Source: an uncultured Candidatus Saccharibacteria bacterium
GTDB lineage: Bacteria; Patescibacteriota; Minisyncoccia; Phycocordibacterales; 2-02-FULL-43-11
Direction of reading: 5' to 3'
Assembly: GCA_964348785.1 (NCBI GenBank)
Contig: CAYGDO010000005.1
Coordinates: 1,188 to 65,187, forward strand
Length of the DNA stretch: 64,000 nucleotides
Shown: positions 25,452-43,399 of the stretch, piece after piece
Layout: each line of letters starts with the position of its first letter
Numbering within the stretch: position 1 is the stretch's first letter
Program-made: the position numbers and the translations under genes
The notes under the pieces: model-generated
Database searches by the model: none
Told to the model about the DNA's origin: nothing
The model's input: the letters and a program-made list of their open reading frames with translations, nothing else

Positions 25452-26423
25452 ATGTTAATAGATGAAGTAATAATAAATTTAACCTCTGGTAAGGGTGGAG
25501 ATGGGGTGGTCAGGTGGCTTCATGAGAAGGGCAAGGAATTTTCTGGTCCAGCTGGGGGTAATGGTGGTAAGGGTGGAAATGTTTTTATAACTGCCATTAG
25601 GGATATAAGCGCACTTTCTCGTTTTAGGGCTGAGAAAAAATTTGAAGCAGGAAGGGGTGATGAGGGTGGCAGTTTCGGAATGCACGGAAAAGATGGCAGT
25701 GATTTGCTTATTAAAGTTCCGATTGGTTCAATTGTAACTAATTCGGATACTGGAAAGGTTTACGAATTTTTAAAAGAGGAGGATAAAATTTTGGCTATAC
25801 CTGGAGGATTGGGAGGAAAGGGAAATAAAAATTTTAAGAGCGCTACCAATACTCGTCCCGAGGAATCTACAAAAGGAAAGCCTGGTTACAGTGCTGATTT
25901 TAAAATTGAACTTCGTCTGATTGCTGACGTGGGTTTTATCGGATTACCAAATGCTGGTAAAACTAGTTTATTAAATGCTCTTACAAATTCTAAGGCTCGT
26001 GTTGCCGATTATCCATTTACGACACTCGAACCAAATCTTGGTAGTTTGTACGGTATGATTTTGGCTGATATCCCAGGCCTTATTGAAGGAGCTTCAGAAG
26101 GGAAAGGTATCGGAGATAAGTTTTTAAGACACATCAGCAGAACCAGTTTAATTGTCCACTGTATTGCTTTAGATAGTGGAGACCTTTTTGGTGATTATGA
26201 AGTCATTCGTAAAGAATTACTTGATTACGATAAAACCCTTTGTGATAAAGAAGAAATTATCGTTTTAACGAAAACTGACAAGGTTTCTTCGGATGTAATC
26301 AAAAACGCTATAAAATTGTTTAAAAAAACAAAGAATAAAGTATTAACAGTATCGATCCTTGAGGACGGATCTATCAAAGAGTTGTCTGACTATTTATCAT
26401 CAGAGTTTAGTAAAAAGATTTAA
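25452..26423 (+). CDS. obg: GTPase Obg/CgtA.
   Basis: Gly-rich Obg fold GKGGDGVVRWLHEKGKEFSGPAGGNGGKGGNV. G-domain G1 GLPNAGKTSL, G2 YPFTTLEPNLG, G3 DIPGLIEG, G4 TKTD. Confidence 0.9.
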   Translation: MLIDEVIINLTSGKGGDGVVRWLHEKGKEFSGPAGGNGGKGGNVFITAIRDISALSRFRAEKKFEAGRGDEGGSFGMHGKDGSDLLIKVPIGSIVTNSDTGKVYEFLKEEDKILAIPGGLGGKGNKNFKSATNTRPEESTKGKPGYSADFKIELRLIADVGFIGLPNAGKTSLLNALTNSKARVADYPFTTLEPNLGSLYGMILADIPGLIEGASEGKGIGDKFLRHISRTSLIVHCIALDSGDLFGDYEVIRKELLDYDKTLCDKEEIIVLTKTDKVSSDVIKNAIKLFKKTKNKVLTVSILEDGSIKELSDYLSSEFSKKI

Positions 26424-26472
26424 ACATTCTATTCCTTGATTAAGCTATAAAAATTGTTAAACTTTTTAAGTT

Positions 26473-27879: not shown

Positions 27880-27906
27880 ATTTATATTAACGTTTTTTAG
27901 GTTTTT

Positions 27907-27937
27907 AAAAAGCTAGGTTGTGAAACCTAGCTTTTTA
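27907..27937 (+). terminator. Rho-independent terminator after gatB.
   Basis: AAAAAGCTAGGTT-GTGA-AACCTAGCTTTTT: a 9-bp stem with flanking A/T tracts, probably bidirectional. Confidence 0.7.
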
Positions 27938-27958
27938 ATATTTAATTCAATTAAGATG

Positions 27959-27997
27959 CTAGCCGAGATGCCTTGTTAAATAAGGCTATCTCGGCTA
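27959..27997. repeat. Nested perfect inverted repeat (TAGCCGAGAT-GCCTTgttaaatAAGGC-ATCTCGGCTA) with no T-tract.
   Basis: A 10-bp outer stem encloses a 5-bp inner stem. It lies in the 690-bp non-coding region upstream of the giant gene. Confidence 0.4.
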
Positions 27998-28574
27998 TGA
28001 AACATATATCTTTTAAGGATTTATATTTTGGGTTTCATACAAAAGGAGGAAAAGTTTTTAAATTTATCTCATGAATCCAAAGGTGCTTTTTCTGTTTTAT
28101 TATCGATGTTATTCAAACACCTTCCTCCGGAACTATTTTTAAATTGATAAAGTCTAAATAGCACCAACCTTTAATTTTGTAGGCCGTAAAACCACGCATA
28201 ATGCCTCAAGATGGCCTTTTCGAATGTGTTTATGGATCCGTTTTGGCTTACCGGTAGAGAGTTATCGCAATCCTTTGTTTTTAATGCCCCGAAACTTTAG
28301 CTATCGTTAGAATTAAGGCCTGTTTTTTTATGGGTTTTAGGACTTATGGGGTAACTGTTTGGGGTAATTAATTTTTTGCTAAAAAATATGAATTTTTGGC
28401 TCATTTTTGGTCTAGTTTTTTGGGGGCGTGCTACGAGTTTGTAATTTTCAATTTATTGACAATATCGGATATCCGAGATGGCCTTATTTATACACAGTTT
28501 TGCTATTAATCTCGGGCTCTATAAGAGGTATAATTTATGTACTTAAGAAATCTTTTTCCAATATATAAATAATA

Positions 28575-31500
28575 ATGTCTGCTGGATTGAAAATTGAAGA
28601 TAGAAAATTTATACCCTCGAAGGATGCTTCGAAGTTATCTGGTTATGCTCCGGATTATATTGGTCAGCTTTGTAGAGGTGGAAAACTTGAATGTAGAAGG
28701 GTAGGCAGATCCTGGTTTGTTGAAGAAACCTCTTTGGTTAAACATTGCCAAATTAACGGCAATGATAAACCTCTAACTCAGGAGTCGGTACCGGGTTATA
28801 AGTCTTCCGGTTTTGAAATTGAGGACAAAGACAGGGTTTATGTGGCTTCGGACTTTAAAGTTGAGAATAAACAAGAGAATGAAAAAACAGCTCTCCCAAA
28901 GGTTGAGGAAATAAAATCCCTTTCTAACGTTGTCATTTTAGAAAACTCAAAAATTAGCCCATCTTCTTCCGGTGCATTGAGTTTAAAGAACAACCTAAAG
29001 ACCAGTCTTTTGAAATTGCCAAAGTTCCCAAAGATTGATCCTGACTTTTTGCATAAAATTTATTCACTCACTGTTTCAGTCGCTGTCGTTACTTTTGTCT
29101 TTTTTGCTAGAGGTTCTTCTTTTACCGAAACAGTTTCTTTATTTGCAAAAAATTCTTTTGATAACTTGAATTCTGGTTTTGTGGCTTTGGTTCAAGATTT
29201 TAGTAATTTGACCCCAAAGGTTTTGGCCAATAATTTTGCTTACGGTTTTGAAAATAAAATAGACAAAAAAGAATCCGGATTGATTTCTAGTTTTGTGAAT
29301 CATCAAGTATTCAATTTTGGGAAAAAAGCTTCTCTTGTTTTTAATACAACTAAATTTGCTTCTTTGGAGTTTAAAGATAATCCTATCGGTTTTGGTAAAA
29401 ATACCGCTTTAGTAATTTTTGAAAATAGTTCAAACAAGGTTTCAGGTTTGGCAAAAAATATTTCTGGTATGCCAGATAGATTTGCTTTTTACTTGTCTAG
29501 TCAAAAAGTTTTAATTAATGATTTGATGGTTGTTACGGCTTCAATTTCTGAAAGTCTTAAACAAGATCCTCTTTTCCCAATTAAAGAATTTGCTAAGAAC
29601 GTAAATTTGGAAACAGATAAGTACATTAACAATGGCAAAAATTTTGTTTTGAGTTTGTTTGATAGAAGCAAATTACCAAATCAATTTATCGTGGTTTATA
29701 AAGTTGATGGAACTAAAAAATTACAAAAGACTCCTGCTTCACAGATTTACATTGAAGGACCAAGACAGGTTGTGCAAAACGTAACGCAACAAATAAAAGT
29801 TTCTGGAGTGACAAAGGAAGAAGTCGAATCAATGCTTGCTTCTTTAAATACAAAACTTTCAAGTGAAATTTATAAAATATCAAGTGCCACAAATAGTAAT
29901 GGCGTTTATATAAATAATGTTTACAATACTGTTTCTCATACAAACAAAATAGATAAATTGGGTTCTATTGAAATCTCTAATTCCACAATTACCGGTTCAA
30001 CATTTAGCGGAACAACTGGAGTTTTCTCTGAATCAGTTTCTATCGGTGGAACATTGGCAGTAACTGGATCTTCAACTTTCTCAGGTAATACAAATTTTGA
30101 TTCTGGAGTTTTATATATTGATTCTGTAAATAACAGAGTTGGAATTTCAACCACAACTCCGGGATTTACTCTTGATGTTGATGGAACAATTAATGCGACA
30201 GCTTTGTATGTTAATGGTTCTCCTTACATAGGCAGTCAATGGACAACTTCTGGCACTGATGTTTATTACAACGGTGGAAATGTTGGCATCGGCACATCTT
30301 CCCCTTATGGGTTGCTTTCTGTCGTCGGTGAAATTATTGCAGAAAAATTTACAGCCACTTCAACTACAGCAACAAGCACTTTTGGAGGAGGTTTGTCGGT
30401 TTTGGGCAATATAAATTTTAATGGAGAGCTTCTTCAAGACAATGCTCCATTTGTTGGTAGTCAATGGACTAGCACTTCAACTGGAGTTTATTACAATTCT
30501 GGTAACGTTGGAGTAGGTACAACTTCTCCAACTGATTTGTTTTCAGTCGGTGGAGTAGTTTATATTGCTTCAACCACTTCACCATCTGTAGCTACTAACA
30601 GACTTTATAATTCCTTTGGAGATTTATATTGGAATGGAAATCTTTTGAGTTCTGGATCAATTGGCACTTGGACATCTTCTGGTGGAAATGTTTATCGTGG
30701 TTCAGGATTTGTCGGAATTGGTAGCACAACTCCTTTTGTGACATTAGCTGTTGGTGGTGATGCTTATGTTGACGGCAATTTAACTGCTTCAAACATAACA
30801 GCAACTGGCACTGCAACATTTAGAAATATTTTGGCAACATCTTCTACCACCCTCCAAAACTTCACTTTCCAAAATGCTACAGGTACACAAGCAACTACAA
30901 CTAATTTCTTCTCTTCAATCTTTAACGGCATCACAGGAATCTTTTCTTCTTTAACTTCTGGTTCTGCCACTTTCGGTTCGTTAACGGCAACATCTTCAGT
31001 AAATCTTTCTTATGCTGGCGCTGGTAATAACATGCTCCTCACCACAGATGGATCAGGAAATGTTGTTGGAAGTTCTACTCCACAAGTGGCTTCGATTAAT
31101 GCGACAAGTACGACGGCGACTTCCACATTTACAAATTTATTTGCTAATCAATCAATTCTTGGGACTATTATTGGCGGCACTTGGAACGGTTCTACGATCG
31201 CTCAATCTTATGGTGGTACAGGATTTAGTTCATACACCGCTGGAGATGTTTTGTATGCAAATGGTTCTGGCAATTTAACAAAACTTCCAATTGGAGCTGA
31301 TGGTTTGGTTTTGAAAATCACTGGCGGTCTTCCAGATTGGCAGGCAGATGTGACTAATAGCGGAGCGGCGGGATTGTGGGCAACATCAACTGACAGTCTA
31401 GTTCTTTATCCTACTGATTCGGCAGACGTTTTAGTTTTAGGAGGAACTGCTACCACTACAACTGGAAATATTTTAGAAGTTATTGGTAATTCAAGATTAG

Positions 31501-34500
31501 GTGGCACAGTTTCTGTCGGAGCCACAACAACACCTTCCGCTTCTTTGTCTATAAACGCTTTGGCCGGGCAAGATTCATTCTCTATTGGCTCTTCAACTTC
31601 TTCGTATTTCTTGGTTAACAAGAGTGGAAATGTTGGAATTGGGACAACTAGTCCTGTAACTAAACTAGCAATTACCACATCTACAGGTGCTGATGGTCTT
31701 ATTGCTGGAAATTCTTTTGTTGGTAACTGGAATGATATATCAACATACGCCGTTTTTTCTCACAGTAATTTCAGAGTAAATGGTTCTACAAACAATTATG
31801 CCTTAATTCAGGATTCTACTGGCGAGACATATTTAAATGCAGCTTCTGGAAAGGAAATTCGTTTTGCTTTGGCTGGAACGAGAGCAATGGTATTGGATGA
31901 TAACGGCAATCTTGGAATAGCAAGTAATACCCCTTATGCAAAATTATCTGTAACTAACACGGGAACAAACCCGTCATTTTTGGTGGAAGATTCAACTTCA
32001 TCAGACTCAACGCCATTTATTATTGATGCGAGTGGAAATGTTGGTGTCGGCACCACTACTCCAAATTGGAAATTATCAGTAGCAGGGATCGGATCATTTG
32101 ATGATTATATTAGAGCCTCATATTTTACTGCGACTTCAACTTTAAGAGCTTCAACTTTTCCATATGCATCAACAACCGCTCTTTCGGTTTCTGAAAATGC
32201 ATATTTTCCAAATAATGGAATTTGGAATGAAAATGGCGATCTTGGTGTAGGGACGACCTCACCTTCTTCAAATTTTTCTGTTTCTGGAAATGCTTATATA
32301 ACTTCGACTTTAGGCATTGGCACAAACGATGTGCCACAAGGACAATTAAGGGTGGCTGGGGATACTCAAGGTTTATTGTATGTTTCTCAACTTGGAGCAG
32401 CGGATGATGAGAAGAACTGGTATTTTGACGCAGAAGGAGGTGATTTATATTGGGGAATAAACAACGATGCTTTTTCTGGAGGTGCTAATTATGCAAGAAT
32501 TTCTAGGACGGGAGTAAGCATTGATGCTTTTGAAGTGATGTATGGTTATAACAACCAAGCATGGTTTAAGCAGGAAGTGGCGGGTATTCAACCTTATACT
32601 AACTCTCCAACAGCTCGTTGGCATATAAGAGCGGGTTCAACCGCTGCAAGTAGCGCCCCTCTCAAAATAGATTCCGGTCCATTGATGACCAGTCCTGAAA
32701 TCGGAGCTATAGAATTTTTGACTGATAAGTGGTATGGAACTATTACTACCGGCACATCAAGAAAAGAATTTACGTTAAATGACCAAGTTTTGACTTCGGG
32801 TAGAGTTCCTTTTGCAACAACCAATGGTAGATTGACTGATGATACGGATTTAGTTTTCACAGGCTCTAATCTTGGAATTGGAACTTCTACTCCTTACGCA
32901 ATGTTGTCTGTTGCTGGAGAAGTTGTGGCTCAAAACTTTACTGCCACTTCTACAACCGCCACATCAACATTTGCGGGAGGTATTACAGGACCAGGAAGTT
33001 TTACTGTTCAATCTTCAAGTGGAAGAGTTGGAGTTGGTACAACTTCTCCTTATGCTTTGCTTTCGGTTCATGGGCTTGGAGCTTTTGATTACATCAATGT
33101 TAATGCCACAACTTCCACTTCAACTATCTCTGGTGGTTTAAGTGTTGGAGGAGGTGCTTTAAATTACGATTTTTCTTCAGGAGTTACTTCAATAAATGCC
33201 TTAGAAATGGGGGCTTTGAATTTTGAAGCAGATGCTGGGCAGGTAAGCTGGGCTGATCTAACAGTTACATCAGCTTCAGTTGCCGGTTTAGCTCAAAGTT
33301 ATTCAGCGCAAATAAATAGCAATCCAATTTTGACAATTTTTGGTGAGGCAGATGGGGCAGGTGGAGTCAGAAATACTTTGGCCGTTGGTATCGGCACCAC
33401 ATCTCCACTTCATCAGTTAGATATTTTGGCTGGTTCAACAACTGATTTTACAACAGGAAAAACTGCTAATTATTATGGTATTAACGTAAGCAATCAAGCG
33501 ACCTCTTCAACAGCATCAATTATAAAATCAGGTATCAATATTACTTCTACGGGTAGTTGGTCGGGCACTTCCGCTTCAAATATTGGATTGTATGTTTCTT
33601 CTGTCACTGGAGGTACAAATAATTATGACGCCATATTTAATGGTGGTGGAAATGTTGGAATTGGCACGACTTCACCTTTTGCTAAATTATCGGTTGCAGG
33701 AGCTTCACTTTCAACTTCACCGGTCTTTGCAGTTTCTACTTCAACCGCCTCAGCAACTTCAACCGCCTTCATCATTGATTCAAACGGAAAGGTAGGAATC
33801 GGCACTTCCACTCCGTCTCAACAACTATCAGTTCAAGGTAACGGTTACTTCACCGGCAACTTAATTGCTAACACTCTTCAGTTCTTAGGTATTGGAAACA
33901 ATATGATGCTTGTTACTGATGATTCAGGAAATGTTGTTGGAAGTTCAACTCCACAAGTGGCTTCGATTAATGCAACAAGTACAACGGCAACTTCCACCTT
34001 CGCCGGCAACCTCTCAGTCGGAGGAAATTTGAATTTCAACGGAGCATTTTTGCAAAACGGTTCTCCGTTTGTTGGTAGTCAGTGGACAACAAGTGGTTCA
34101 AATATTTACTACAATACTGGCAACGTCGGCATCTCATCATCAACTCCAGTAAACACTCTTGATGTCGGTGGTTGGATCGGTGTTGCAACTGCTTACGGAT
34201 TTAAACAAGGCACCACAACCGCCCTCATCGCCTCATCAACCACTTACGGAACATTTGTCGGAGGTAACGCTGGAAAATCAACAAACTCCACAGGACTATA
34301 CAACACAGCAGTTGGATACAACTCTGCATTTACAAACACTACTGGAAGCTCCAACACATCTTTGGGATACAACTCACTCTTCACCAACACAGGTGACTCA
34401 AACGTAGCACTCGGTGAAAACACACTTTATCTAAACGGAACTGGTTCATACAACACAGCTGTCGGTACTCGTTCTCTATATACTAATAGTACAGGTGCCA

Positions 34501-37500
34501 ACAACACCGCTCTTGGTTTCGGTGCTCTCTATACCAACACTGCTTCAAACAACGTAGCTCTAGGTATGCACTCTCTCTACTACAACTCATCAGGTGCTGA
34601 CAATATTTCTATTGGTTATCAATCTTCATACTCAAACGACACAGGAGGAAAAAACACAGTCATTGGTACTCAAGCTCTCTACACCAACTTCTCTGGAGCT
34701 AACAACACAATCTTAGGATACAAATCAGGTTATGCCGTAGACACAGGAGCCAACAATATATTGTTAGGTTATCAAGCTGGTGATGCTATTACATCAGGAT
34801 CAAACAACATTGTCTTAGGTTATGACATTGACGCTCCTTCAAACACAGACAGCAATCAATTGAACATCGGTAACATAATCTTTGGTACATCTATTGATGG
34901 AACAGGGACAACCATTTCATCAGGCAACATCGGCATCGGTACAACATCTCCTGGTCAAAAACTTTCTGTCGCCGGTGACATTCTTGGAAACAATATTATT
35001 GGTCAATACTTTACTGCGACTTCTTCAAGTGCAACCAGCACTTTCGCAGGAGGTATCACAGGGCCTGGAAGTTTTACTGTTCAATCTTCAAGTGGAAGAT
35101 TGGGAGTGGGGACTACATCGCCTTACGCTTTTCTATCAGTTAATTCAAATGGTTTAACTGGTCCAGCTTTTAACATTGGTTCATCAACGCAAACCAATTT
35201 TGAGATATCAAATGTGGGAAGTATGACTGTAAGAAACACACAATTTGGTGCAACACATAATATCATCGCGAGAGATCTTACTTATAGTTTTACTGATGGT
35301 TCGGGTAGTGGTCTTGGAATTGGTACAGGTATGTATTTAGCACCAGGTCAAATTAGATTGGGAACCAGTGTTATTAATTGGACAGGAGACCCAGCAGTGG
35401 TTGGCAACAGTAATAGTATAGGTCTTGCTTATCAAGCCAAGGGATTTTTGAGAGTTACAGATGGCAGCTCGGGTTTTGGTAATTTAATTTCAAATGCTAT
35501 CGGGGTGAGTACAACATCACCTTGGGCTGTTCTTTCTGTCGCCGCTTCTTCTACAAATTCAAACAGCATTCCTTTATTTGCAGTTTCGACTTCTACCGCC
35601 TCCGCCACTTCTACCGCTTTCATTATTGACGCAAACGGAAAAGTTGGAATCGGAACAACAACTCCGTATACACAACTTGCTGTACAAGGTGGAATTGCAG
35701 GAGACTATTTGAATATTAATGCCACAACTTCCACTTCAACTATCTCTGGTGGTTTGAGTGTTGGGGGAGGCTCTTTGGTTTATGATTATTCTTCAGCTTT
35801 GACTTCGATTAATGGACTTCAGATTAGTGGAACTTTGAAGTTTGATACTGATGCAGGTGTAATAAATTGGATAGATTTACCAATTTCTGCCGCTGCAAAT
35901 AATGCGCCACAAAGCTACTCAGCCAACATCGGTTCAACCGAAGTTTTCACAGTCTACGGCGAAGCAGACGGATCAGGAAACTCCAAAAACCTAAGAGTTG
36001 GAATCGGCTCTACCACTCCTATGGCAAAACTCTCTGTCTCTGGAACAACCACTTCTTCAACAAGTTGGGCATTTGCTGTTGCTGATGTAGCTTCATCAAC
36101 TAAATTCATAATAAGAGACGATGGGGTAATAGGTGTTGCCACAACCACACCTTGGGGACTCTTTGCAATCAATCCAAATGGTGTCACAGGCCCTTCATTT
36201 GTTGTCGGCTCTTCAACTAGAACTGACTTTGTTGTGAACAATGATGGAAAAGTTGGAGTTGGTGGAACAACGACACCTTGGACCGCTCTTGCTATTAATG
36301 CACAAGCTGGCACTGATTCATTTGCCATCGGTTCTTCCACCTCTTCATACTTTATTGTTAACAAGAGTGGAAATGTTGGAGTAGGAACATCAACACCTTC
36401 TGTCGGTCTTCATGTTTATAAAAATTTTCAGACATATCAGCAATTGGCATCAACAATGGTTTTAGATTCTGATTCGTATACGGGTTTAGTTTTGTCAGAA
36501 GGTGGTAATTCAAAATGGGCAATTAGGACTCAGTCAAATTCTAATAGTGATTTGATCTTTCTAAGAAATAGCGGTACATCAGCCTCTCCTTCTTGGGATA
36601 CAGACAATTTAGTTTTTCAAAGGTCAACTGGTAATATTGGTATTGGCACCACATCTCCTGGTCAGACATTGTCTGTCGCCGGTGACATTCTTGGAAATAA
36701 CATTATCGGTCAATACTTCACTGCAACTTCTTCAAGTGCCACTTCAACATTTGCTGGGGGAATTACTGGGCCTAATAGTTTTACTGTTCAATCTTCAAGT
36801 GGAAGATTGGGAATTGGCACTTCTTCTCCATGGACATCATTAGCCATTGAAGCAACAGCGGGTCAGGATTCTTTCTCTATCGGCTCTTCAACATCGTCAC
36901 ATTTTACGATTAATAAGAGTGGGGTTGTGAATATAAACAATGGGCCTATTAGTGCAACGAATGTGCCATTGATAGTTAGAGATACAACTAATGATGGGGC
37001 CTCTTCGATTAAAGTTACATCTAATAATAATAGCCAGATTGCATTAATTGGACCTACTGCATTTAGTTCTAATACTGTTTTGACCATTAGTGCAACAGGC
37101 GGCGGGGCACTTCAACTCCAGAATTATAGTACTGGACCTGTAACCATTGGTACTAACGGGGGCACAGAGAGATTTAGAGTTAATAGTGCCGGGCTTGTTG
37201 GTATTGGTGCATCATCTACTCCATGGGCGTTACTTTCTGTTAATCCTAATGCTCACACATCTGGCCCTTCATTTGTTATTGGTTCTTCAACTAAAACTGA
37301 TTTTGTTGTTGCTAATGATGGTAAAGTTGGAATAGGTACGACTTCACCTTCTCAAGAATTATCGGTTCAAGGCAACGGATATTTTTCAGGTAACGTCATT
37401 ACATCTGGTTCTCTCACAATAAATGATTGGTTAAATCTTCCAGCAGGTTATGGTATTAAACAAGGCACCACCACAGCCCTCATCGCTTCATCAACCACCT

Positions 37501-40500
37501 ACGGAACATTTGTCGGAGGTAACGCTGGAAAATCAACAAACTCCACAGGACTATACAACACAGCAGTTGGATACAACTCTGCATTTACAAACACTACTGG
37601 AAGCTCCAACACATCTTTGGGATACAACTCACTCTTCACCAACACAGGTGACTCAAACGTAGCACTCGGTGAAAACACACTTTATCTAAACGGAACTGGT
37701 TCATACAACACAGCTGTCGGTACTCGTTCTCTATATACTAATAGTACAGGTGCCAACAACACCGCTCTTGGTTTCGGTGCTCTCTATACCAACACTGCTT
37801 CAAACAACGTAGCTCTAGGTATGCACTCTCTCTACTACAACTCATCAGGTGCTGACAATATTTCTATTGGTTATCAATCTTCATACTCAAACGACACAGG
37901 AGGAAAAAACACAGTCATTGGTACTCAAGCTCTCTACACCAACTTCTCTGGAGCTAACAACACAATCTTAGGATACAAATCAGGTTATGCCGTAGACACA
38001 GGAGCTAACAACACACTCTTAGGTTATCAAGCAGGTGACGCTATCACATCAGGATCAAACAACATTGTCTTAGGTTATGACATTGATGCTCCTTCAAACA
38101 CAGACAGCAATCAATTGAACATCGGTAACATAATCTTTGGCACAAACATTAGTGGAACTGGCACCACTATTTCAACAGGTAACATTGGTATCGGCACAAC
38201 ATCACCAGGTCAAAAACTTTCAGTTGCTGGAGATATTCTTGGAAACAATATTATTGGTCAATACTTTACTGCGACATCGACTACTGCGACGAGTACGTTT
38301 GCGGGGGGTATCACAGGACCAGGAAGTTTTACTGTTCAATCAGACAGTGGGAGATTGGGTGTGGGCACGACTTCACCTTCAGCTTTACTTTCTGTTAACG
38401 CTTCCGCCGGTAATGATTCCTTCTCTATCGGCTCATCAACTTCTTCATATTTCATTGTTAACAAGAGTGGGAATGTGGGAGTGGGTACGACTTCGCCTTC
38501 TGCAAAATTGTCAGTTAAAGGTGATGGGACAACAACGGGCAGAGCCTTTGCCATTTCAAATTCATCTGGAGCAGAAAAGTTTACTGTATTAGACAGTGGA
38601 AACGTCAGACTTGGCGTTGGTGCTAATGCTGCTGCTACAAAATTGGAGATAATCGGTTCGGATTCTTCATCTTCAGTGGGGACAGAGGATGAGATTAAAT
38701 TGATTCGCCCACTATTATCATTGGAATATCCAAAAGTTGCATCATTTAAACTTGGTAAATGGGACCCTGGCAATTTAACTTCAAGTTCTAGACTCGATAT
38801 AGCATTAAAAAATGGAGCCAACGGAACTTATGATGCTGATACGACAGTTATGTCTTTTCTTTCAAGCGGTAATATTGGTATTGGTACAACATCTCCATAT
38901 GCAATGCTTTCTGTTGCTGGTGAAGTCGTGGCTAAAAATTTCACTGCCACATCTACAACTGCTACATCAACATTCGCTGGCGGAATAACTGGACCAAATA
39001 GTTTTACTGTTCAGTCTTCAAGTGGAAGGTTGGGTGTTGGCACATCTTCTCCGTGGACATCATTAGCTATTGAAGCGACAGCAGGTCAAGATTCTCTTGC
39101 TATTGGTTCCTCAACTTCTTCATATTTTGTGGTTGATAAGAGTGGAAATGTGGGTATTGGAACTAGTAGTCCTATGTATAAACTTAATTTGAAAACAGCT
39201 ACAGCTAATTATGGTTTTATGCATACTGATGGTTCTGTAGAGTTAGGTACTTTCGTATGGAATACAGGCAGTCTTCCGGGTGGATGGATTGGAACAAAAT
39301 CTAATCATGATTTACATCTTTTCACTAATAATAGTAATCCTTTAGCAACTCTTGATACTTCTGGAGATTTTGGTATAGGTACCACTTCTCCATACGCAAA
39401 ATTATCCGTAACAAACACAGGCACAGAACCATCATTTTTGGTGGAAGACTCAACTTCTCCAGACTCAACACCGTTTATTATTGATGCTTCAGGACAAATG
39501 GCACTTGGGACTTCAACCACTCTTGAAAAGTTTACTCAGTCGGGTGGGTATTTCCGACTTACTTCTGGAGCAACCAATGGTGATGGGGTAAATAATGGAA
39601 CGTATTTTACTGATTCAACTGGTAATAATGAACTTATGCAAGCAACAGGGGGTAAGCCAACTTATTCATCAGGATATAAAGTTACTCCAGCAGGAACAGC
39701 GGCCACTATTCAATTAAATACCGCCACTGCTTTTAATTGGTATATACCAACTGGATTAAGCGCAGGCTCAACATCTGGTGATTTAACTGGAATAACTACA
39801 AATACAATGGTGTTTAACAGTTCAGGAAGATTGGGTATTGGCACCACTACGCCATATGCCAGACTTTCTATAAACGGAGCTTCAACTGGAACAGACAATT
39901 TATTTTTGGTAGCCACTTCTACCGCTTCTGCCACCTCAACCGCATTCATCATTGATTCAAACGGAAAAGTGGGAGTTGGTACAACTTCTCCTTATGCACA
40001 ACTTTCAGTTCAAGGAATAATCGCAGGACAAAGTTTTAATGCTGATAATGCTTCCGCTACCAGTACTTTTGCTGGAGGTTTCAATGTTGGTAACGGTTCA
40101 ATATTGTATGATTGGAATTCAGGCACAACTTCTATTCCTTATCTTGAAATTGGTGCACAAAATTTTGCCGCTGATTCTGGTATTGTCTCTTGGACTGATT
40201 TACCAATAACCTCTTCTTCTGCTAATAATTCTGTACAAAGCTACTCTGCCAACATCGGTTCGACCGAAGTTCTAACAGTCTACGGCGAAGCCGACGGATC
40301 AGGTAATTCCAAAAACCTAAGAGTCGGAATTGGTTCAACCACTCCTATGGCAAAACTTTCTGTCTCTGGTACAACAACATCATCAACAAGTTGGGCGTTT
40401 GCAGTAGCTGATGTTTCCTCATCAACCAAATTCATAATTAGAGATGACGGAGTAATAGGAGTCGCTACCACCACTCCTTGGGGACTCTTTGCAATCAATC

Positions 40501-42782
40501 CAAATGGTGTAACAGGCCCTTCATTTGTTATTGGTTCTTCAACTAAAACTGATTTTGTTGTGAACAATGATGGGAATGTTGGTGTCGGTACCACTTCTCC
40601 ATATGCAAAACTTTCTGTAACCAACACAGGCACAGGGCCATCATTTTTGGTGGAAGATTCAACTTCTCCAGATTCAACACCTTTTGTTATTGCAGATGAT
40701 GGTGATATTGGTATAGGAACTAGCACTTCAAATCTTGGTTCTTATAGATTATTTATTGATTCTCCAAATTCACAAACTTTAGGAATAAAAAATTCAGTAA
40801 CCACCAACCAACCTGAAATGCTGACAATGACTGCTTCAGACAACTCTGTTTTAGCTATTAGATATAACGAAGCTGCTCCAACTAACGCTGTCCCCGCAGA
40901 TGTTTGGGAATATAGATCAGGAGGTTCAGGAAGAAAGCAAGTTTTTTCTTACTTTAGTCTTTATCCAACATTGACAGTAGACACTGCGGCTTCAAGAGGT
41001 GGTATCGGTATTGGTACTACTACTCTAGGTTCTAAACTTTCTGTTGCTGGTTGGTCTGATGATACTGCCGGAACTGCTTTAATGTTGATTTCAACTTCTA
41101 CTGCTTCTGCTACTTCTACTGCTTTCGTAGTTGATTCAAACGGAAAAGTTGGAATTGGTTTAAATAATCCTCAGTCGCAACTTCACATATCAGGCAATGT
41201 ACTTTTAAATAACGGACAAGCGTTCCAGGTAGTAGATAGTGCCGGTACTAATAGAAGCGTCTTAACGATGTCATCGGCAGATAACGTCACTTTAGCTGGC
41301 AGGTCAGGGGTGTCAGATATAAATATAATAAGTTCCACTACTTTTATAGTTAAGTCTTCAGGTGCTATTGGTATCAACGATACTACTCCTGATTTCAAAT
41401 TTGAATTAAACGGGCAAACTGGAAGTGGATATTTTGGTATAACACAAGCTGTCGATGGAGATGTGTTTCAAGTTGGAGCTAACGGATTAGTGGGTATTGG
41501 AACATCAACTCCTTTCGCCAAATTATCAGTTTCGGGAACTTCACTTTCAACTTCACCGGTCTTTGCAGTTTCCACCTCCACAGCCTCAGCAACTTCAACC
41601 GCCTTTATTATTGATTCAAACGGTAAGGTTGGAATCGGAACAACTTCACCTTGGACCACCTTCTCTGTAAATGGCGGAGTTGCGATGCCAAGTTTGACCG
41701 CTGAAAGTACTTCAGGAAGCGCTGTTTGTTTGGATGCGGGAGGGGAGCTCCAAGTAAACACAGGTCTTCAAACTTGCACAGTGTCATCTATTAGGTATAA
41801 GACAGATATAAATAATAATACTGGTGGTCTAAGTACGATTCTTGCTCTTAAACCTTCCGCCTTCAAATATAAAGATGGTGACGGAAAAGAAAGAATTGGA
41901 TTTGTAGCCGAAGATGTTGAAAAGATTGACCCAAGACTTATTGCTTTAGGAAGAGACGGTTTACCTCAAGGTGTTCGCTATGAAGATATCACCGCGGTTC
42001 TCACAAAGTCCACTCAAGATATTGCTTTTATACTTTCTTTGGCTTCAAGCACGGATGGCACATTTAGATCAGTTCGTTTGGATGATTTGGAAAAGAGAGT
42101 TTCTGATTTGGAAAATAGAAATGTTGCCAATGTGAGCTCTTCCGGCTCTAATATTTCTTTGCAAGGTGCAGTTGATGCAGTCGTTACATACTTTGAATCA
42201 TTGGGTGTAAAAATCTCAAACGGTGTCGCTGAATTTAAGAAAATTATTACTGAAAACTTTGAAGTGGGAAGTTCCGCAAGACCGGCAGGTATCACTTTGT
42301 ATGATGAGGAAACAAAAAATCCTTATTGTTTTAAGATTTTAGGTGGCGTGGCCACAAGCACTCCTGGCTCTTGTGATTCTATTGTTCCAATTGATTCTGC
42401 TACAAGCACTCCTTCAACTCCGGGGGATGTCGCTTCAAGTACCGCCGATGTAATTCCTCCAGTTATTACTTTGCTTGGCAATAATCCAGCAGAGATTGCC
42501 AAAGGAACTTCCTATGTTGATGTTGGTGCAACCGCAACTGATAATTCTGGAATGAGTATCATGCCAGATATTATTGAAAATACAGTTGATACTTCTGTTG
42601 TCGGCGAATACCGAGTTGTTTATAGCGCTCACGATGCCTTGATGAATATTTCAACAAGTACTCGTATTGTGAAAGTTTTTGATCCGTACGCTCCGATTGT
42701 TCCTGTAGAACCACCAGTTACAACAACTGAACCAATTATTGATAATACTGTATCAACAAGTACAGCAACCAGCACAGAATAG
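28575..42782 (+). CDS. Giant (4735 aa) membrane-anchored surface fibre protein. Order: N-terminal excisionase-type HTH; single TM; long β-helix/β-roll-like repeat region; C-terminal peptidase-S74 intramolecular-chaperone domain; terminal Ig-like (DUF5011-type) domain.
   Basis: One uninterrupted 14.2 kb ORF. Residues about 20-55, YAPDYIGQLCRGGKLECRRVGRSWFV, are HTH_17-like. TM helix IYSLTVSVAVVTFVFFA at about aa 160-180. More than 40 copies of the GNVGIGTTSPxxKLSV(A/S)G motif, plus 16-17-residue N..G.. repeats (NTAVGYNSAFTNTTGSS...). C-terminus SIRYKTDI...LKPSAFKYKDGDGKERIGFVAEDVEKIDPRLIA...GVRYEDITAVL...LEKRVSDLENR matches the phage tail-fibre/endosialidase S74 chaperone. Final PPVITLLGNNPAEIAKGTSYVDVGATATD... 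is DUF5011-like. Confidence 0.85.
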   Translation: MSAGLKIEDRKFIPSKDASKLSGYAPDYIGQLCRGGKLECRRVGRSWFVEETSLVKHCQINGNDKPLTQESVPGYKSSGFEIEDKDRVYVASDFKVENKQENEKTALPKVEEIKSLSNVVILENSKISPSSSGALSLKNNLKTSLLKLPKFPKIDPDFLHKIYSLTVSVAVVTFVFFARGSSFTETVSLFAKNSFDNLNSGFVALVQDFSNLTPKVLANNFAYGFENKIDKKESGLISSFVNHQVFNFGKKASLVFNTTKFASLEFKDNPIGFGKNTALVIFENSSNKVSGLAKNISGMPDRFAFYLSSQKVLINDLMVVTASISESLKQDPLFPIKEFAKNVNLETDKYINNGKNFVLSLFDRSKLPNQFIVVYKVDGTKKLQKTPASQIYIEGPRQVVQNVTQQIKVSGVTKEEVESMLASLNTKLSSEIYKISSATNSNGVYINNVYNTVSHTNKIDKLGSIEISNSTITGSTFSGTTGVFSESVSIGGTLAVTGSSTFSGNTNFDSGVLYIDSVNNRVGISTTTPGFTLDVDGTINATALYVNGSPYIGSQWTTSGTDVYYNGGNVGIGTSSPYGLLSVVGEIIAEKFTATSTTATSTFGGGLSVLGNINFNGELLQDNAPFVGSQWTSTSTGVYYNSGNVGVGTTSPTDLFSVGGVVYIASTTSPSVATNRLYNSFGDLYWNGNLLSSGSIGTWTSSGGNVYRGSGFVGIGSTTPFVTLAVGGDAYVDGNLTASNITATGTATFRNILATSSTTLQNFTFQNATGTQATTTNFFSSIFNGITGIFSSLTSGSATFGSLTATSSVNLSYAGAGNNMLLTTDGSGNVVGSSTPQVASINATSTTATSTFTNLFANQSILGTIIGGTWNGSTIAQSYGGTGFSSYTAGDVLYANGSGNLTKLPIGADGLVLKITGGLPDWQADVTNSGAAGLWATSTDSLVLYPTDSADVLVLGGTATTTTGNILEVIGNSRLGGTVSVGATTTPSASLSINALAGQDSFSIGSSTSSYFLVNKSGNVGIGTTSPVTKLAITTSTGADGLIAGNSFVGNWNDISTYAVFSHSNFRVNGSTNNYALIQDSTGETYLNAASGKEIRFALAGTRAMVLDDNGNLGIASNTPYAKLSVTNTGTNPSFLVEDSTSSDSTPFIIDASGNVGVGTTTPNWKLSVAGIGSFDDYIRASYFTATSTLRASTFPYASTTALSVSENAYFPNNGIWNENGDLGVGTTSPSSNFSVSGNAYITSTLGIGTNDVPQGQLRVAGDTQGLLYVSQLGAADDEKNWYFDAEGGDLYWGINNDAFSGGANYARISRTGVSIDAFEVMYGYNNQAWFKQEVAGIQPYTNSPTARWHIRAGSTAASSAPLKIDSGPLMTSPEIGAIEFLTDKWYGTITTGTSRKEFTLNDQVLTSGRVPFATTNGRLTDDTDLVFTGSNLGIGTSTPYAMLSVAGEVVAQNFTATSTTATSTFAGGITGPGSFTVQSSSGRVGVGTTSPYALLSVHGLGAFDYINVNATTSTSTISGGLSVGGGALNYDFSSGVTSINALEMGALNFEADAGQVSWADLTVTSASVAGLAQSYSAQINSNPILTIFGEADGAGGVRNTLAVGIGTTSPLHQLDILAGSTTDFTTGKTANYYGINVSNQATSSTASIIKSGINITSTGSWSGTSASNIGLYVSSVTGGTNNYDAIFNGGGNVGIGTTSPFAKLSVAGASLSTSPVFAVSTSTASATSTAFIIDSNGKVGIGTSTPSQQLSVQGNGYFTGNLIANTLQFLGIGNNMMLVTDDSGNVVGSSTPQVASINATSTTATSTFAGNLSVGGNLNFNGAFLQNGSPFVGSQWTTSGSNIYYNTGNVGISSSTPVNTLDVGGWIGVATAYGFKQGTTTALIASSTTYGTFVGGNAGKSTNSTGLYNTAVGYNSAFTNTTGSSNTSLGYNSLFTNTGDSNVALGENTLYLNGTGSYNTAVGTRSLYTNSTGANNTALGFGALYTNTASNNVALGMHSLYYNSSGADNISIGYQSSYSNDTGGKNTVIGTQALYTNFSGANNTILGYKSGYAVDTGANNILLGYQAGDAITSGSNNIVLGYDIDAPSNTDSNQLNIGNIIFGTSIDGTGTTISSGNIGIGTTSPGQKLSVAGDILGNNIIGQYFTATSSSATSTFAGGITGPGSFTVQSSSGRLGVGTTSPYAFLSVNSNGLTGPAFNIGSSTQTNFEISNVGSMTVRNTQFGATHNIIARDLTYSFTDGSGSGLGIGTGMYLAPGQIRLGTSVINWTGDPAVVGNSNSIGLAYQAKGFLRVTDGSSGFGNLISNAIGVSTTSPWAVLSVAASSTNSNSIPLFAVSTSTASATSTAFIIDANGKVGIGTTTPYTQLAVQGGIAGDYLNINATTSTSTISGGLSVGGGSLVYDYSSALTSINGLQISGTLKFDTDAGVINWIDLPISAAANNAPQSYSANIGSTEVFTVYGEADGSGNSKNLRVGIGSTTPMAKLSVSGTTTSSTSWAFAVADVASSTKFIIRDDGVIGVATTTPWGLFAINPNGVTGPSFVVGSSTRTDFVVNNDGKVGVGGTTTPWTALAINAQAGTDSFAIGSSTSSYFIVNKSGNVGVGTSTPSVGLHVYKNFQTYQQLASTMVLDSDSYTGLVLSEGGNSKWAIRTQSNSNSDLIFLRNSGTSASPSWDTDNLVFQRSTGNIGIGTTSPGQTLSVAGDILGNNIIGQYFTATSSSATSTFAGGITGPNSFTVQSSSGRLGIGTSSPWTSLAIEATAGQDSFSIGSSTSSHFTINKSGVVNINNGPISATNVPLIVRDTTNDGASSIKVTSNNNSQIALIGPTAFSSNTVLTISATGGGALQLQNYSTGPVTIGTNGGTERFRVNSAGLVGIGASSTPWALLSVNPNAHTSGPSFVIGSSTKTDFVVANDGKVGIGTTSPSQELSVQGNGYFSGNVITSGSLTINDWLNLPAGYGIKQGTTTALIASSTTYGTFVGGNAGKSTNSTGLYNTAVGYNSAFTNTTGSSNTSLGYNSLFTNTGDSNVALGENTLYLNGTGSYNTAVGTRSLYTNSTGANNTALGFGALYTNTASNNVALGMHSLYYNSSGADNISIGYQSSYSNDTGGKNTVIGTQALYTNFSGANNTILGYKSGYAVDTGANNTLLGYQAGDAITSGSNNIVLGYDIDAPSNTDSNQLNIGNIIFGTNISGTGTTISTGNIGIGTTSPGQKLSVAGDILGNNIIGQYFTATSTTATSTFAGGITGPGSFTVQSDSGRLGVGTTSPSALLSVNASAGNDSFSIGSSTSSYFIVNKSGNVGVGTTSPSAKLSVKGDGTTTGRAFAISNSSGAEKFTVLDSGNVRLGVGANAAATKLEIIGSDSSSSVGTEDEIKLIRPLLSLEYPKVASFKLGKWDPGNLTSSSRLDIALKNGANGTYDADTTVMSFLSSGNIGIGTTSPYAMLSVAGEVVAKNFTATSTTATSTFAGGITGPNSFTVQSSSGRLGVGTSSPWTSLAIEATAGQDSLAIGSSTSSYFVVDKSGNVGIGTSSPMYKLNLKTATANYGFMHTDGSVELGTFVWNTGSLPGGWIGTKSNHDLHLFTNNSNPLATLDTSGDFGIGTTSPYAKLSVTNTGTEPSFLVEDSTSPDSTPFIIDASGQMALGTSTTLEKFTQSGGYFRLTSGATNGDGVNNGTYFTDSTGNNELMQATGGKPTYSSGYKVTPAGTAATIQLNTATAFNWYIPTGLSAGSTSGDLTGITTNTMVFNSSGRLGIGTTTPYARLSINGASTGTDNLFLVATSTASATSTAFIIDSNGKVGVGTTSPYAQLSVQGIIAGQSFNADNASATSTFAGGFNVGNGSILYDWNSGTTSIPYLEIGAQNFAADSGIVSWTDLPITSSSANNSVQSYSANIGSTEVLTVYGEADGSGNSKNLRVGIGSTTPMAKLSVSGTTTSSTSWAFAVADVSSSTKFIIRDDGVIGVATTTPWGLFAINPNGVTGPSFVIGSSTKTDFVVNNDGNVGVGTTSPYAKLSVTNTGTGPSFLVEDSTSPDSTPFVIADDGDIGIGTSTSNLGSYRLFIDSPNSQTLGIKNSVTTNQPEMLTMTASDNSVLAIRYNEAAPTNAVPADVWEYRSGGSGRKQVFSYFSLYPTLTVDTAASRGGIGIGTTTLGSKLSVAGWSDDTAGTALMLISTSTASATSTAFVVDSNGKVGIGLNNPQSQLHISGNVLLNNGQAFQVVDSAGTNRSVLTMSSADNVTLAGRSGVSDINIISSTTFIVKSSGAIGINDTTPDFKFELNGQTGSGYFGITQAVDGDVFQVGANGLVGIGTSTPFAKLSVSGTSLSTSPVFAVSTSTASATSTAFIIDSNGKVGIGTTSPWTTFSVNGGVAMPSLTAESTSGSAVCLDAGGELQVNTGLQTCTVSSIRYKTDINNNTGGLSTILALKPSAFKYKDGDGKERIGFVAEDVEKIDPRLIALGRDGLPQGVRYEDITAVLTKSTQDIAFILSLASSTDGTFRSVRLDDLEKRVSDLENRNVANVSSSGSNISLQGAVDAVVTYFESLGVKISNGVAEFKKIITENFEVGSSARPAGITLYDEETKNPYCFKILGGVATSTPGSCDSIVPIDSATSTPSTPGDVASSTADVIPPVITLLGNNPAEIAKGTSYVDVGATATDNSGMSIMPDIIENTVDTSVVGEYRVVYSAHDALMNISTSTRIVKVFDPYAPIVPVEPPVTTTEPIIDNTVSTSTATSTE

Positions 42783-42803
42783 TTTTTTGATTTAAGATAA
42801 GAT

Positions 42804-43322
42804 ATGAAAAACAAACCAAACAATTATGCGTTCATAGACAGTCAGAATGTTCACAAGGGAATTAAACATCTTGGTTGGGATATAGATTGGTACAGATTTT
42901 TGGTGTATCTAAAAGAAAAATATAAAGTAAGTGCAATATATTTATTTATTGGTTTTGTGCAAGAGAATCAAAAACTATACGAATATCTTCAAAAGTGTGG
43001 CTATATATTAATTTTCAAACCAATTATATTTGATGGTGAAGGGAAAGTTAAAGGGAATTGTGATGCTGATTTAGTATTACACACTCTCTTGAAAATTAAT
43101 GAATATGAAAAAGCGGTAATTGTTACGAGCGATGGTGATTTTTACTCACTTGTTAGACATTTATATGAGCAGAAAAAACTTGAAATGGTGTTAAGTTCAT
43201 ACGTTAAGACTTGTTCAAAACTTTTAAAAAAGGAGGCAAAAGAGAAGATAAATTATATGGATAATCTTAGGAACAAAATAGGCAGAAATGAAAATGCACC
43301 GCATAAGGACGGAACCTTATGA
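42804..43322 (+). CDS. NYN-domain (LabA-like) putative RNase.
   Basis: YAFIDSQNVHKG...NCDADLVLHTL...AVIVTSDGDFYSLVRHL matches NYN/PIN-like conserved Asp positions. Confidence 0.65.
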   Translation: MKNKPNNYAFIDSQNVHKGIKHLGWDIDWYRFLVYLKEKYKVSAIYLFIGFVQENQKLYEYLQKCGYILIFKPIIFDGEGKVKGNCDADLVLHTLLKINEYEKAVIVTSDGDFYSLVRHLYEQKKLEMVLSSYVKTCSKLLKKEAKEKINYMDNLRNKIGRNENAPHKDGTL

Positions 43323-43399
43323 AGTGCATTTTCTTATGGATAAGCATTATGTTAGTAAATATTTATGGGTAAGTCAATGTTTGATATTTAGATAAAAAA

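Follow-up and report, generated by a model that had tools for sequence, protein, structure and literature searches.

A 14.2-kb gene for a probable giant surface fibre with an S74-type chaperone and a predicted N-terminal winged helix-turn-helix in a Patescibacteria contig

The gene and its product

The stretch of DNA considered here (henceforth the window) comprises 64,000 nucleotides of contig CAYGDO010000005.1, from the assembly (GCA_964348785.1) of an uncultured Candidatus Saccharibacteria bacterium. Its most prominent feature is a single open reading frame (ORF) that runs from an ATG at 28575 to a stop codon at 42780-42782 and whose product, 4735 amino acids long, is probably a giant fibre exposed at the cell surface. 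The parts of the gene, its product, and its promoter region are collected in Table 1. A frame of 4735 codons cannot have stayed open by chance in DNA of 33-42% GC. This start is the real one, for the nearest homologues open with the same residues (MSAGLKIEDRKF / MVAGLKIEDKKF). An exact look-up of the full protein found no record.

Serine (13.5%), threonine (12.5%), glycine (12.3%), and asparagine (7.9%) make up much of the protein, and over residues ~500-4400, these four together with alanine account for 48-64% of the chain, in accord with the low-complexity bulk noted in a preliminary description that had been made from the sequence alone. The same description had recognized the single giant frame, and its observation of a giant fibre gene is confirmed as a whole; its interpretation, that the product is an S74-type surface fibre and plausibly an adhesin, is supported by the homologies set out below. 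It did not include the N-terminal helix-turn-helix (HTH), the internal position of the S74 domain, the location of the gene next to gatB, the palindrome in the promoter, or the breaking of assemblies at repeats.

Only seven cysteines occur in the 4735 residues: C33, C40, and C58 in the HTH and two pairs, C4385/C4401 and C4585/C4600, that by their predicted topology lie outside the cell. The members of each extracellular pair are 15-16 residues apart, so spaced that disulphide loops are plausible. The shaft is free of cysteine over more than 4,300 residues, until C4385/C4401 at its tip.

Table 1. Features of the giant gene, its product, and the upstream region (window coordinates)
Feature	Residues	Position	Strand	Basis or remark
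Inverted CCGAGAT pair, TAGCCGAGAT..18 nt..ATCTCGGCTA		27960..27997	+	Just past gatB terminator (27905-27938)
Conserved promoter module		28462..28534	+	Same element order and spacing upstream of orthologues
18-bp palindrome ATATCGGATATCCGAGAT		28462-28479	+	Part of promoter module
TTATACACA, variant of TTATCCACA		28488-28496	+	Part of promoter module
Half-site ATCTCGG		28509-28515	+	Part of promoter module
-10-like TATAAT		28529-28534	+	Part of promoter module
Complete ORF	4735 aa	28575..42782	+
Predicted winged HTH (HTH_17 / Xis-BldC-MerR type), putatively cytoplasmic	5-60	28587..28754	+	HTH_17 family matches, AF2, Foldseek
Single transmembrane helix	158-180	29046..29114	+	Hydrophobicity, conservation
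Juxtamembrane region, variable, N/S/F/K-rich	181-395	29115..29759	+	Poorly conserved; AF2 pLDDT <40
Conserved neck (VTQQI..GVTKEEVESMLASLNTKLSSEIYKIS...YINNVYNTVSHTNKIDKL)	396-470	29760..29984	+	Kept in homologues P0122-P0126 and locus ORFs
Fibre shaft	471-4403	29985..41783	+	Motif, module profile, PHROG matches
951-nt internal duplication, first copy	1873-2189	34193..35143	+	DNA self-comparison
951-nt internal duplication, second copy	2958-3274	37448..38398	+	93% identical to first copy
Putative intramolecular chaperone / S74 autoprotease domain	4404-~4525	41784..42149	+	Pfam, invariant S/K, PDB profile matches, AF2, Foldseek
Small beta domain with Cys pair C4585/C4600	~4560-4615	42252..42419	+	Kept in homologues; AF2 pLDDT ~80
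Ig-like domain, Bact_surface_Ig-like (PF16403, formerly DUF5011)	4631-4701	42465..42677	+	Pfam, AF2, Foldseek
Pro/Thr-rich C-terminal tail	4702-4735	42678..42779	+	Sequence

The fibre shaft

The fibre proper seems to start at a conserved neck, predicted to be helical, which matched no Pfam family. From there to the S74 domain, the protein is a mosaic of modules, each closing with a capping-loop motif, G.VGIGTTSP..L.V, present in about 42 copies (in its more general form, G.VGIG(T/S)(T/S).P..(K)L.V). The count agrees with the more than 40 copies of GNVGIGTTSP..KLSV.G reported in the preliminary description. At the level of DNA, the underlying 61-nt unit is present 21 times.

A profile built from 31 loop-anchored modules and run against PDB matched five distinct sequences, all of them MAT fibres of Bdellovibrio, and nothing else at E<=1. 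The matches were to Bd2133 (8OND; 2.8e-16, over three stretches), Bd3182 (8OJN/8ONB/8ONC; 5.8e-8), Bd2439 (8OL4; 5.7e-5), and Bd1334 (8OML/8ON4; 2e-3 for 8OML). By this profile, the shaft is homologous to solved fibres with a trimeric beta-helix. A weak resemblance of residues 3939-4053 to the designed beta-propellers Cake and nvBagel (E 1e-4) was set aside, the match to the MAT beta-helix (2.8e-16) being far better. When compared with PHROGs, the shaft matched two phage tail-fibre families, phrog_9942 at 1e-24 and another at 4e-10. The shaft shares 25-40% identity with its orthologues, and since these matches are not collinear, the modules appear to have been shuffled between species.

The 951-nt duplication within the shaft encloses two blocks of 16-17-residue N..G repeats with a period of 51 nt, the first copy holding about ten units of the form N.(A/V)(L/V)G....(Y).N..G... 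Repeats of this length had been described before and are indeed present, but their assignment to a beta-roll has no detectable homologue behind it: the 17-residue block found nothing in PDB (by sequence or profile), in Pfam at E<=10, or in NCBIfam. A YadA-like beta-roll is a visual impression and would be an inference from the spacing of the repeats.

The C-terminal end

The last capping-loop modules (residues 4304-4370) and the Cys-loop tip directly precede S4404, the first residue of a Peptidase_S74 domain (PF13884). The match, over residues 4404-4455 (nt 41784-41939), scores 34.4 bits with the whole protein as query and 38.2 bits with the C-terminal fragment, against a gathering cutoff of 22. 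It lies where the preliminary description had placed an S74-type C-terminus; the family holds, but the domain is not terminal, for about 200 residues follow it.

The domain opens with SSIRYK, in which the putative catalytic residues, Ser4404 (41784-41786) and Lys4409 (41799-41801), have the canonical S-x4-K spacing. Both are invariant, five residues apart, in an alignment of 12 S74 sequences, and the lysine is invariant in an alignment of 22 homologues. SSIRYK aligns with SDERLK of 8JOV, SDRRIK of 6F45, and SDERHK of 3GUD, so that Ser4404 corresponds to the catalytic serine of solved chaperone domains. Run against PDB, a profile of the domain matched a tail fibre (8JOV, 1.4e-13), phage S16 gp37 (6F45, 8e-11), the L-shaped tail fibre of T5 (8HQZ, 1e-6), the ICA domain of the myelin regulatory factor MyRF (7DC3, 6e-5), and the neck appendage chaperone of phage GA-1 (3GUD, 0.012); the processed chain of the last begins at the residue aligned with S4404. 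An AF2 model of the monomer has a predicted local distance difference test score (pLDDT) of 85-91 in the S74 core, about 80 in the small beta domain, and 93-96 in the immunoglobulin-like (Ig-like) domain. With this model as query, Foldseek found the ICA domain of MyRF (7DC3, 2.9e-3) and, for the Ig-like part, BT2262 (5FQ3, 3e-5) and a Big_3 domain (2KPN).

The S74 domain closes with the helix LEKRVSDLENR. By analogy with Bd3182, which cleaves itself at S782 (PMC10769870), the cut is predicted to fall between V4403 and S4404. It would release a fragment of 332 residues that comprises the chaperone, a small domain with two cysteines, and the Ig-like domain. The two-cysteine domain, with the motif GITLYDEETKNPYCFKILGG......GSC (GITLYDE.T..PYC......G.C in the consensus of its homologues), matched no Pfam family. 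The Ig-like domain, PF16403, scores 49-54 bits against a cutoff of 27, and lies at the position given earlier to a DUF5011-type domain. The order S74-Ig recurs in many Patescibacteria proteins labelled 'tail fiber domain-containing' or 'DUF5011 domain-containing'. Matches to phages in GenBank (by tblastn), Synechococcus phage tail fibres among them, did not extend beyond the S74 core and the loop module nearest to it.

One relative ends differently. The protein encoded at L056:2809-11814, 3002 residues long, has the same HTH and transmembrane (TM) helix at its start, LVIVD repeats, and a C-terminus that by eye resembles an autocleavage motif of the Peptidase_G2 type (LALAGRVPTKV..GD.ISLS..PGVGMKA), accompanied by the two-cysteine motif and without S74. 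This end suggests that C-terminal chaperone modules are interchangeable.

The N-terminal end and membrane anchor

The first 60 residues appear to form a winged HTH. The giant protein's own copy scores 20.2 bits against HTH_17 (PF12728), below the cutoff of 27, but HTH_17 was matched by all seven family members searched (best E 1.1e-6), and the L056 relative reached 26.7 bits. AF2 models residues 5-60 as a beta-beta-alpha-alpha-beta-beta-alpha winged helix with a pLDDT of 81-86 and is uninformative beyond residue 60. The best structural matches of this model found by Foldseek were Pukovnik Xis, BldC, and TraN (TM-score to target 0.68-0.72, with weak E values of 0.017-0.1), along with RacA and RdfS, all DNA-binding proteins. 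The presumed recognition helix, DYIGQLCRGGK, is unchanged across relatives (invariant DYIGQLCR..K).

Residues 158-180, with a Kyte-Doolittle value of 1.69, form the sole hydrophobic segment of the protein, which bears out the single TM helix of the preliminary description. Nearly all relatives likewise have a TM helix after the HTH, and K161 and V172 within the helix are conserved. It is preceded by a charged linker and flanked on its N-terminal side by lysines; because of these lysines, it should act as a signal-anchor that leaves the HTH in the cytoplasm and the rest of the chain outside.

At E<=1e-10, an exhaustive profile search with the HTH in a protein library clustered at 50% identity returned 4,422 cluster representatives, of which the top-scoring are proteins of 300-400 residues with two copies of the HTH. 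They make up a very large family of small Patescibacteria proteins, represented at five of the loci described below and elsewhere, in which the same HTH, single or doubled, is joined to a TM helix and a short tail outside the membrane, of the form ..ELIYERGQ or ..FSDEV.V.PD.SGTAG.I.PVFKK.

The promoter region

Upstream of the giant gene lies a module of short elements that is shared, in order and spacing, with the upstream regions of orthologues at seven other loci (compared over about 170 nt before the start of the HTH gene). In its cross-species form, it consists of a palindrome, 8-10 nt, TTATCCACAG, about 20 nt, the half-site ATCTCGG, about 12 nt, and (TGG)TATAAT. The module can be aligned even between species whose GatB is just 50-63% identical to that of the window. 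In at least 12 orthologous loci, the palindrome stands 81-92 nt before the ATG.

The unit of the palindrome, CCGAGAT, occurs eight times in the window against 3.0 expected, a count that none of 100 shuffles reached. Four of the eight copies fall in the 695-nt spacer upstream of the giant gene, as two inverted pairs, and the one nearer to gatB is predicted to fold into a strong RNA hairpin (-25.3 kcal/mol, z = -6.3). In the set of loci, the density of CCGAGAT per kb is 2.70 over the 450 nt that precede HTH genes, as opposed to 0.43 in other non-coding and 0.31 in coding DNA. CCGAGAT mostly belongs to the full palindrome, ATCTCGG-N4-CCGAGAT, which is enriched about six-fold upstream of HTH-TM genes. 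The palindrome is particular in its spacer: a spacer of 4 gave 91 matches, and spacers of 3, 5, and 6 gave 19, 8, and 5. Among 45 intergenic palindromes, 38 are upstream of HTH genes with the strict signature, and at least three more are upstream of divergent HTH genes.

Two other motifs proved to be general. The possibility that TTATCCACA is a DnaA box was dropped: the motif is enriched overall in the non-coding DNA of these genomes (0.96 vs 0.63 per kb) and is not over-represented in the window, and the GC skew keeps its sign throughout. The locus is thus not oriC, and TTATCCACA is not peculiar to the gene. The second motif, TTATCCAC, reaches in the non-coding DNA of these genomes about 13-19 times its density in coding DNA, so that it looks like a general promoter-associated element, likewise not specific to the gene. 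At 15890-16090, upstream of secA, a TTATCCAC box lies about 27 nt before a TATAAT, ahead of a Lys-rich ORF of 30 codons (15998-16087).

Genomic context and relatives

Upstream of the giant gene lie a nonulosonic-acid/glycan cluster, murB, secA, and genes for an NTPase, a NUDIX protein, an M29 peptidase, MYG1, obg, and gatB. Downstream are a gene with an NYN domain, four tandem genes for LamG_3 surface proteins, an IS200-type transposase, a gene for glyceraldehyde-3-phosphate dehydrogenase, a pilin-like gene, rpe, and a split transketolase gene. Nearly all are on one strand, and the GC content of the window is 32-42%. Pfam was run on 30 flanking ORFs across the window, the direct neighbours of the giant gene included. 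It recognized housekeeping, glycan-synthesis, and LamG genes only, and no capsid, tail, baseplate, or integrase gene within 28 kb on either side. Since its neighbours are housekeeping genes (secA, obg, gatB), the giant gene is a cellular gene of Patescibacteria, not part of a prophage.

The relatives of both termini are found almost only in Patescibacteria (Taylor-, Kaiser-, and Nomurabacteria, Paceibacterota, Parcubacteria), and the M29 peptidase of the window shares 80% identity with its counterpart in a genome of Candidatus Taylorbacteria. A scan with the HTH signature, taking one genome per species, gave 180 confirmed loci. All 80 that were retrieved come from Patescibacteria. Where enough upstream sequence was available (73 loci), gatB is directly upstream on the same strand in 58. 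Before gatB comes obg, often with MYG1 or secA, matching the order in the window (24541-28575), and the series (MYG1)-obg-gatB followed by an HTH-TM gene is kept across Taylor-, Kaiser-, and Nomurabacteria and other Paceibacteria. Three arrangements occur. The HTH, TM helix, and giant fibre may be fused, as in the window, at L004, and elsewhere (up to 3772 residues where complete, at least 3393 where cut by the end of a contig); a small protein with two HTHs and a TM helix may precede a giant fibre that has its own HTH and TM helix; or a small HTH-TM protein may precede a large protein with a Sec signal peptide. The full order HTH-TM-fibre-S74-Ig occurs in complete ORFs of independent genomes, at L019 (3772 residues) and L004 (2305 residues). 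One relative is annotated as 'putative hemagglutinin'. Among 2.9 million viral contigs of IMG/VR, scanned with the single protein, there was one weak match, to S74 only; two of the alignments (A1, A6) were too diverse for the viral-contig locus scan.

The homologue at L019:1921-13236, from Taylorbacteria, is interrupted at residues 998-1330 by an intein (PF14890), inside which an NYN domain is nested. C-terminal blocks of inteins are also present in five other relatives. In the window, an NYN gene (42804-43322) starts 21 nt past the giant gene, with no terminator between them. A link between the two NYN domains was judged weak, at 24% identity.

Independent assemblies

Over their readable parts, at 21458-29879 and 41543-43439, contigs of three independent sources (ERR3094292, ERR3094302, ERZ27247837) match the window with 100% identity. 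Three contigs of other assemblies, identical in gatB, stop within the giant gene at about residues 142, 1483, and 1937. Contig ends inside the gene correspond to window positions 29002, ~33024, ~34386, and 41543, and those at about residues 1483 and 1937 coincide with internal repeats. Many of the contigs from the other loci also end inside the fibre gene, as repeats would lead one to expect.

Discussion

The reading that we favor, with a probability of roughly 70%, is that the gene encodes a giant fibre on the surface of a Paceibacteria-type cell, self-maturing and trimeric, that serves in adhesion and is possibly regulated by its own HTH. It is built on the ORF and its domains, the catalytic residues, the homology to solved trimeric fibres, the topology given by hydrophobicity and charge, the synteny, and the cis element. 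From these, we infer trimerization, cleavage, length, adhesion, and DNA binding in the following way.

The first 60 residues would stay in the cytoplasm as a winged HTH, while the chain is inserted through the signal-anchor (residues 158-180) and some 4,550 residues are exported. Three chains would then associate, with the S74 chaperone nucleating the zipping of a trimeric beta-helix from the C-terminus and each module of the shaft capped by its G.VGIGTTSP..L loop. Ser4404 and Lys4409 would cut between V4403 and S4404, freeing the fragment of 332 residues, and the mature fibre would keep its disulphide-looped tip (C4385-C4401), which the cut would expose. Scaled from Bd3182, whose ~760 residues make a fibre of ~550 Å (PMC10769870), the ~3,900 residues would extend for very roughly 0.3 μm, about the size of the cell. 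The mature fibre would project from the cell and attach to or recognize a host or partner cell, which is most likely its main job. Finally, the giant protein or the small paralogues with two HTHs, which are abundant and have the same promoter module upstream, might bind the palindrome and regulate the gene. Autoregulation is suggested by the combination of a cytoplasmic HTH with a palindromic promoter module conserved between species. That the HTH simply binds its own promoter is a prediction we regard as possible though doubtful, and true signalling from outside to inside through the fibre is less probable than that.

Several observations weigh against this account. The chain runs on past the S74 domain, unlike in classical phage fibres; the ~200-210 residues beyond it comprise a helix, the two-cysteine domain, a linker, the Ig-like domain, and the Pro/Thr-rich tail. 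The tip that precedes the cleavage site is conserved, where a receptor-binding tip would usually be variable, and neither Pfam nor NCBIfam recognizes a lectin or enzyme domain in the shaft. The AF2 monomer model of part of the shaft is of low confidence. A scan with a consensus promoter gave no sigma-70-like site upstream of the giant gene. Finally, the region ~34.4-41.5 kb is not confirmed by the readable independent contigs, which break at internal repeats.

The last point raises the question of whether the size or internal order of the ORF is in part an artefact of assembling repeats, since three independent contigs end inside the gene, the last two at internal repeats, and no readable contig covers the 7 kb or so before the tip. 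We think this quite improbable: the frame is open across all 14.2 kb, the largest duplication is only 93% identical and hence resolvable, independent assemblies reproduce both ends of the gene with 100% identity, and complete relatives of 2305-3772 residues exist. The conserved tip and the lack of a recognized lectin or enzyme domain would fit better with a structural component of the envelope than with a host adhesin: perhaps a fibrous coat or spacer, a fibre for cohesion between cells, or a holdfast to abiotic surfaces. The slot beside housekeeping genes, kept in most of the Paceibacteria examined, is also what one would expect of a core envelope gene. Yet the closest solved relatives are the adhesive fibres of a predator and the receptor-binding fibres of phages, and the length and order of modules vary strongly between species, as they might under diversification driven by hosts, so that a purely structural role seems improbable, if less so than an artefact of assembly. 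Least probable by a wide margin is that the gene is a tail fibre of a prophage, tailocin, or contractile injection system lying in the chromosome. The S74 domain, the homology to tail-fibre PHROGs, and the tblastn matches of phages to the S74 core do speak for such an origin, but the phage genes that should accompany such a fibre are lacking within 28 kb on either side, the protein has a TM anchor and a cytoplasmic domain of its own, the slot after gatB is the same in 58 of 73 loci, and viral contigs offered a single weak match.

The remaining alternative turns on the other end of the protein. It might be a signalling device across the envelope, akin to ToxR or CadC, in which events at the fibre are relayed to a tethered HTH that switches its own promoter and possibly others, adhesion being the input. 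The topology (a DNA-binding-type domain, one TM helix, and an extracytoplasmic part) is that of such a regulator, the recognition helix is invariant across species, small paralogues consisting of just one or two HTHs and a TM helix are very common, and a palindrome at a fixed position (-81 to -92) and a half-site that falls after the TTATCCACA box and ahead of the -10 element are conserved specifically upstream of HTH-TM genes. Against this, the palindrome could instead work as an RNA hairpin or be bound by some other factor, the HTH is predicted to be held to the membrane by a linker of 97 residues (from which it could plausibly reach DNA), and there is no evident route by which a signal from a 0.3-μm fibre would cross a single TM helix. 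We therefore consider the device unlikely, though more probable than the three possibilities just discussed. A related proposal, put forward tentatively and with only slightly more confidence, would add to the adhesive fibre rather than replace it: the giant fibre may also be a membrane-tethered transcription factor whose HTH binds the 18-bp palindrome and half-site of a module conserved across Paceibacteria, so that assembly, engagement, or loss of the fibre feeds back on its expression.

The self-maturing adhesive fibre that we favor has its nearest counterpart in the MAT fibres of Bdellovibrio bacteriovorus, the S74 subgroup in particular (Bd3182, 8ONC/8OJN; also 8OND). Bdellovibrio, too, lives on other bacteria, and its fibres are encoded by the cell. 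MAT fibres are trimers in crystals, their beta-helix closed by a capping loop, V-G-x-x-x-x-P-x-x-x-L, and their surface location and S74 self-cleavage have been shown by experiment (PMC10769870). The giant protein shares with them shaft modules with a V-G-x-G-x-x-x-P-x-x-x-L capping loop (the shaft profile matched nothing in PDB but MAT fibres), an S74 domain with S-x4-K in the C-terminal region, and a mosaic order of modules. It differs in being about five times longer (4735 residues vs ~900-1150), in carrying two-cysteine and Ig-like domains after S74, and in occupying one conserved chromosomal slot where Bdellovibrio has 21 scattered paralogues. A predicted winged HTH in the cytoplasm and a TM anchor stand in for the signal peptide and the beta-rich N-domain of ~130 residues; the MAT N-terminal domain has no PDB entry with which to compare, and the N-terminus here is hydrophilic. 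The envelope probably differs as well, the organism, as one of the Patescibacteria, not being known to have an outer membrane. The protein, then, has the sequence-level marks of the S74 family and lacks two architectural ones, a terminal chaperone and the signal peptide and N-domain of MAT fibres.

Phage fibres and tailspikes with a C-terminal chaperone (K1F endosialidase, T5 pb1, S16 gp37, the GA-1 neck appendage) resemble the giant protein in having a Ser-Lys S74 domain after a beta-helical shaft and in the matches to tail-fibre PHROGs and to solved phage chaperones. Unlike them, it is not part of a virion, is anchored by its N-terminus in a membrane rather than docked to a baseplate, has a chaperone that is not terminal, and is not encoded near phage genes. 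A trimeric autotransporter adhesin such as YadA is likewise long and repetitive, and the 17-residue N..G repeats resemble its head repeats by eye. However, no YadA anchor and no Hep_Hag/YadA head was found by Pfam (E<=0.1 with the protein, E<=10 with the repeat block), and the repeat block had no match in PDB; the anchor of the giant protein is moreover an N-terminal helix in the cytoplasmic membrane, not a C-terminal barrel in the outer membrane.

Two regulators make instructive comparisons. MyRF also combines a DNA-binding-type domain, a single TM helix, and an S74-type trimerizing autoprotease in one polypeptide. In MyRF, the DNA-binding domain and the TM helix flank the ICA domain, which is on the same side of the membrane as the former, so cleavage frees a transcription factor. 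In the giant protein, S74 is some 4,200 residues past the TM helix and outside the cell, so the cut cannot release the HTH, and the DNA-binding folds are unrelated (Ndt80-type in MyRF, Xis/MerR-type here). ToxR and CadC share with it an N-terminal cytoplasmic DNA-binding-type domain, one TM helix, and an extracytoplasmic part, and a palindrome in its own promoter is compatible with autoregulation in their style, with DNA binding here a prediction. The DNA-binding domain of ToxR and CadC is of the OmpR type, where this one is HTH_17/Xis-like, and outside the membrane a fibre of 4,500 residues takes the place of a small sensor domain.

According to one source (PMC12206443), type IV pili are the main candidates studied so far for the recognition of and attachment to hosts by episymbionts of the Patescibacteria, or candidate phyla radiation. 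The giant fibre would be a second concrete candidate, one that is homologous to the fibres with which Bdellovibrio recognizes prey and with which phages bind receptors, and that occupies a single slot in which modules are reshuffled between species. What was already known is the label 'tail fiber domain-containing' that databases attach to relatives. A search of the literature, incomplete in coverage, turned up no account of S74 fibres or of giant proteins with an HTH anchor from Patescibacteria, nor of the family, anchor, synteny, or promoter described here. It is unexpected that a giant adhesin with a conserved palindromic promoter should be fused to a DNA-binding-type domain, and the combination may couple events at the surface to transcription in a manner specific to the lineage. 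If the fibre is indeed a tethered regulator, it would amount to a one-component system coupled to adhesion, in organisms whose classical regulators are very few.

Other features of the window

The cluster at 2163-14283 encodes a Polysacc_synt_2/PseB-like protein, NeuB, a DegT aminotransferase, a CMP-sugar cytidylyltransferase, and a Capsule_synth protein. It adjoins a gene for a protein with Wzy_C and TPR domains, which we take to resemble O-oligosaccharyltransferases of the PglL/PilO type and homologues of which lie upstream of HTH genes at six other loci. O-glycosylation of the Ser/Thr-rich fibre is a possibility.

No tRNA and no Rfam family was found in the window. Only two large genes are on the minus strand, that of a PfkB-family kinase (59659-60651) and that of the IS200-type Y1 transposase (52951-53607), homologues of which lie near HTH genes at several loci. 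The four tandem paralogues at 43400-52910 encode proteins of 701-766 residues, each with an N-terminal signal or anchor and three LamG_3 (concanavalin-like lectin) domains, and similar LamG genes are downstream of HTH genes at two other loci. Between two of the four lies an ORF of 86 residues (45728-45988) that by eye resembles a GIY-YIG nuclease, and an inverted repeat, CCCCGTTAGAGATT / AATCTCTAACGGGG, lies within the ~110 nt just upstream of it. The segment 45611-46036 may be a small mobile element.

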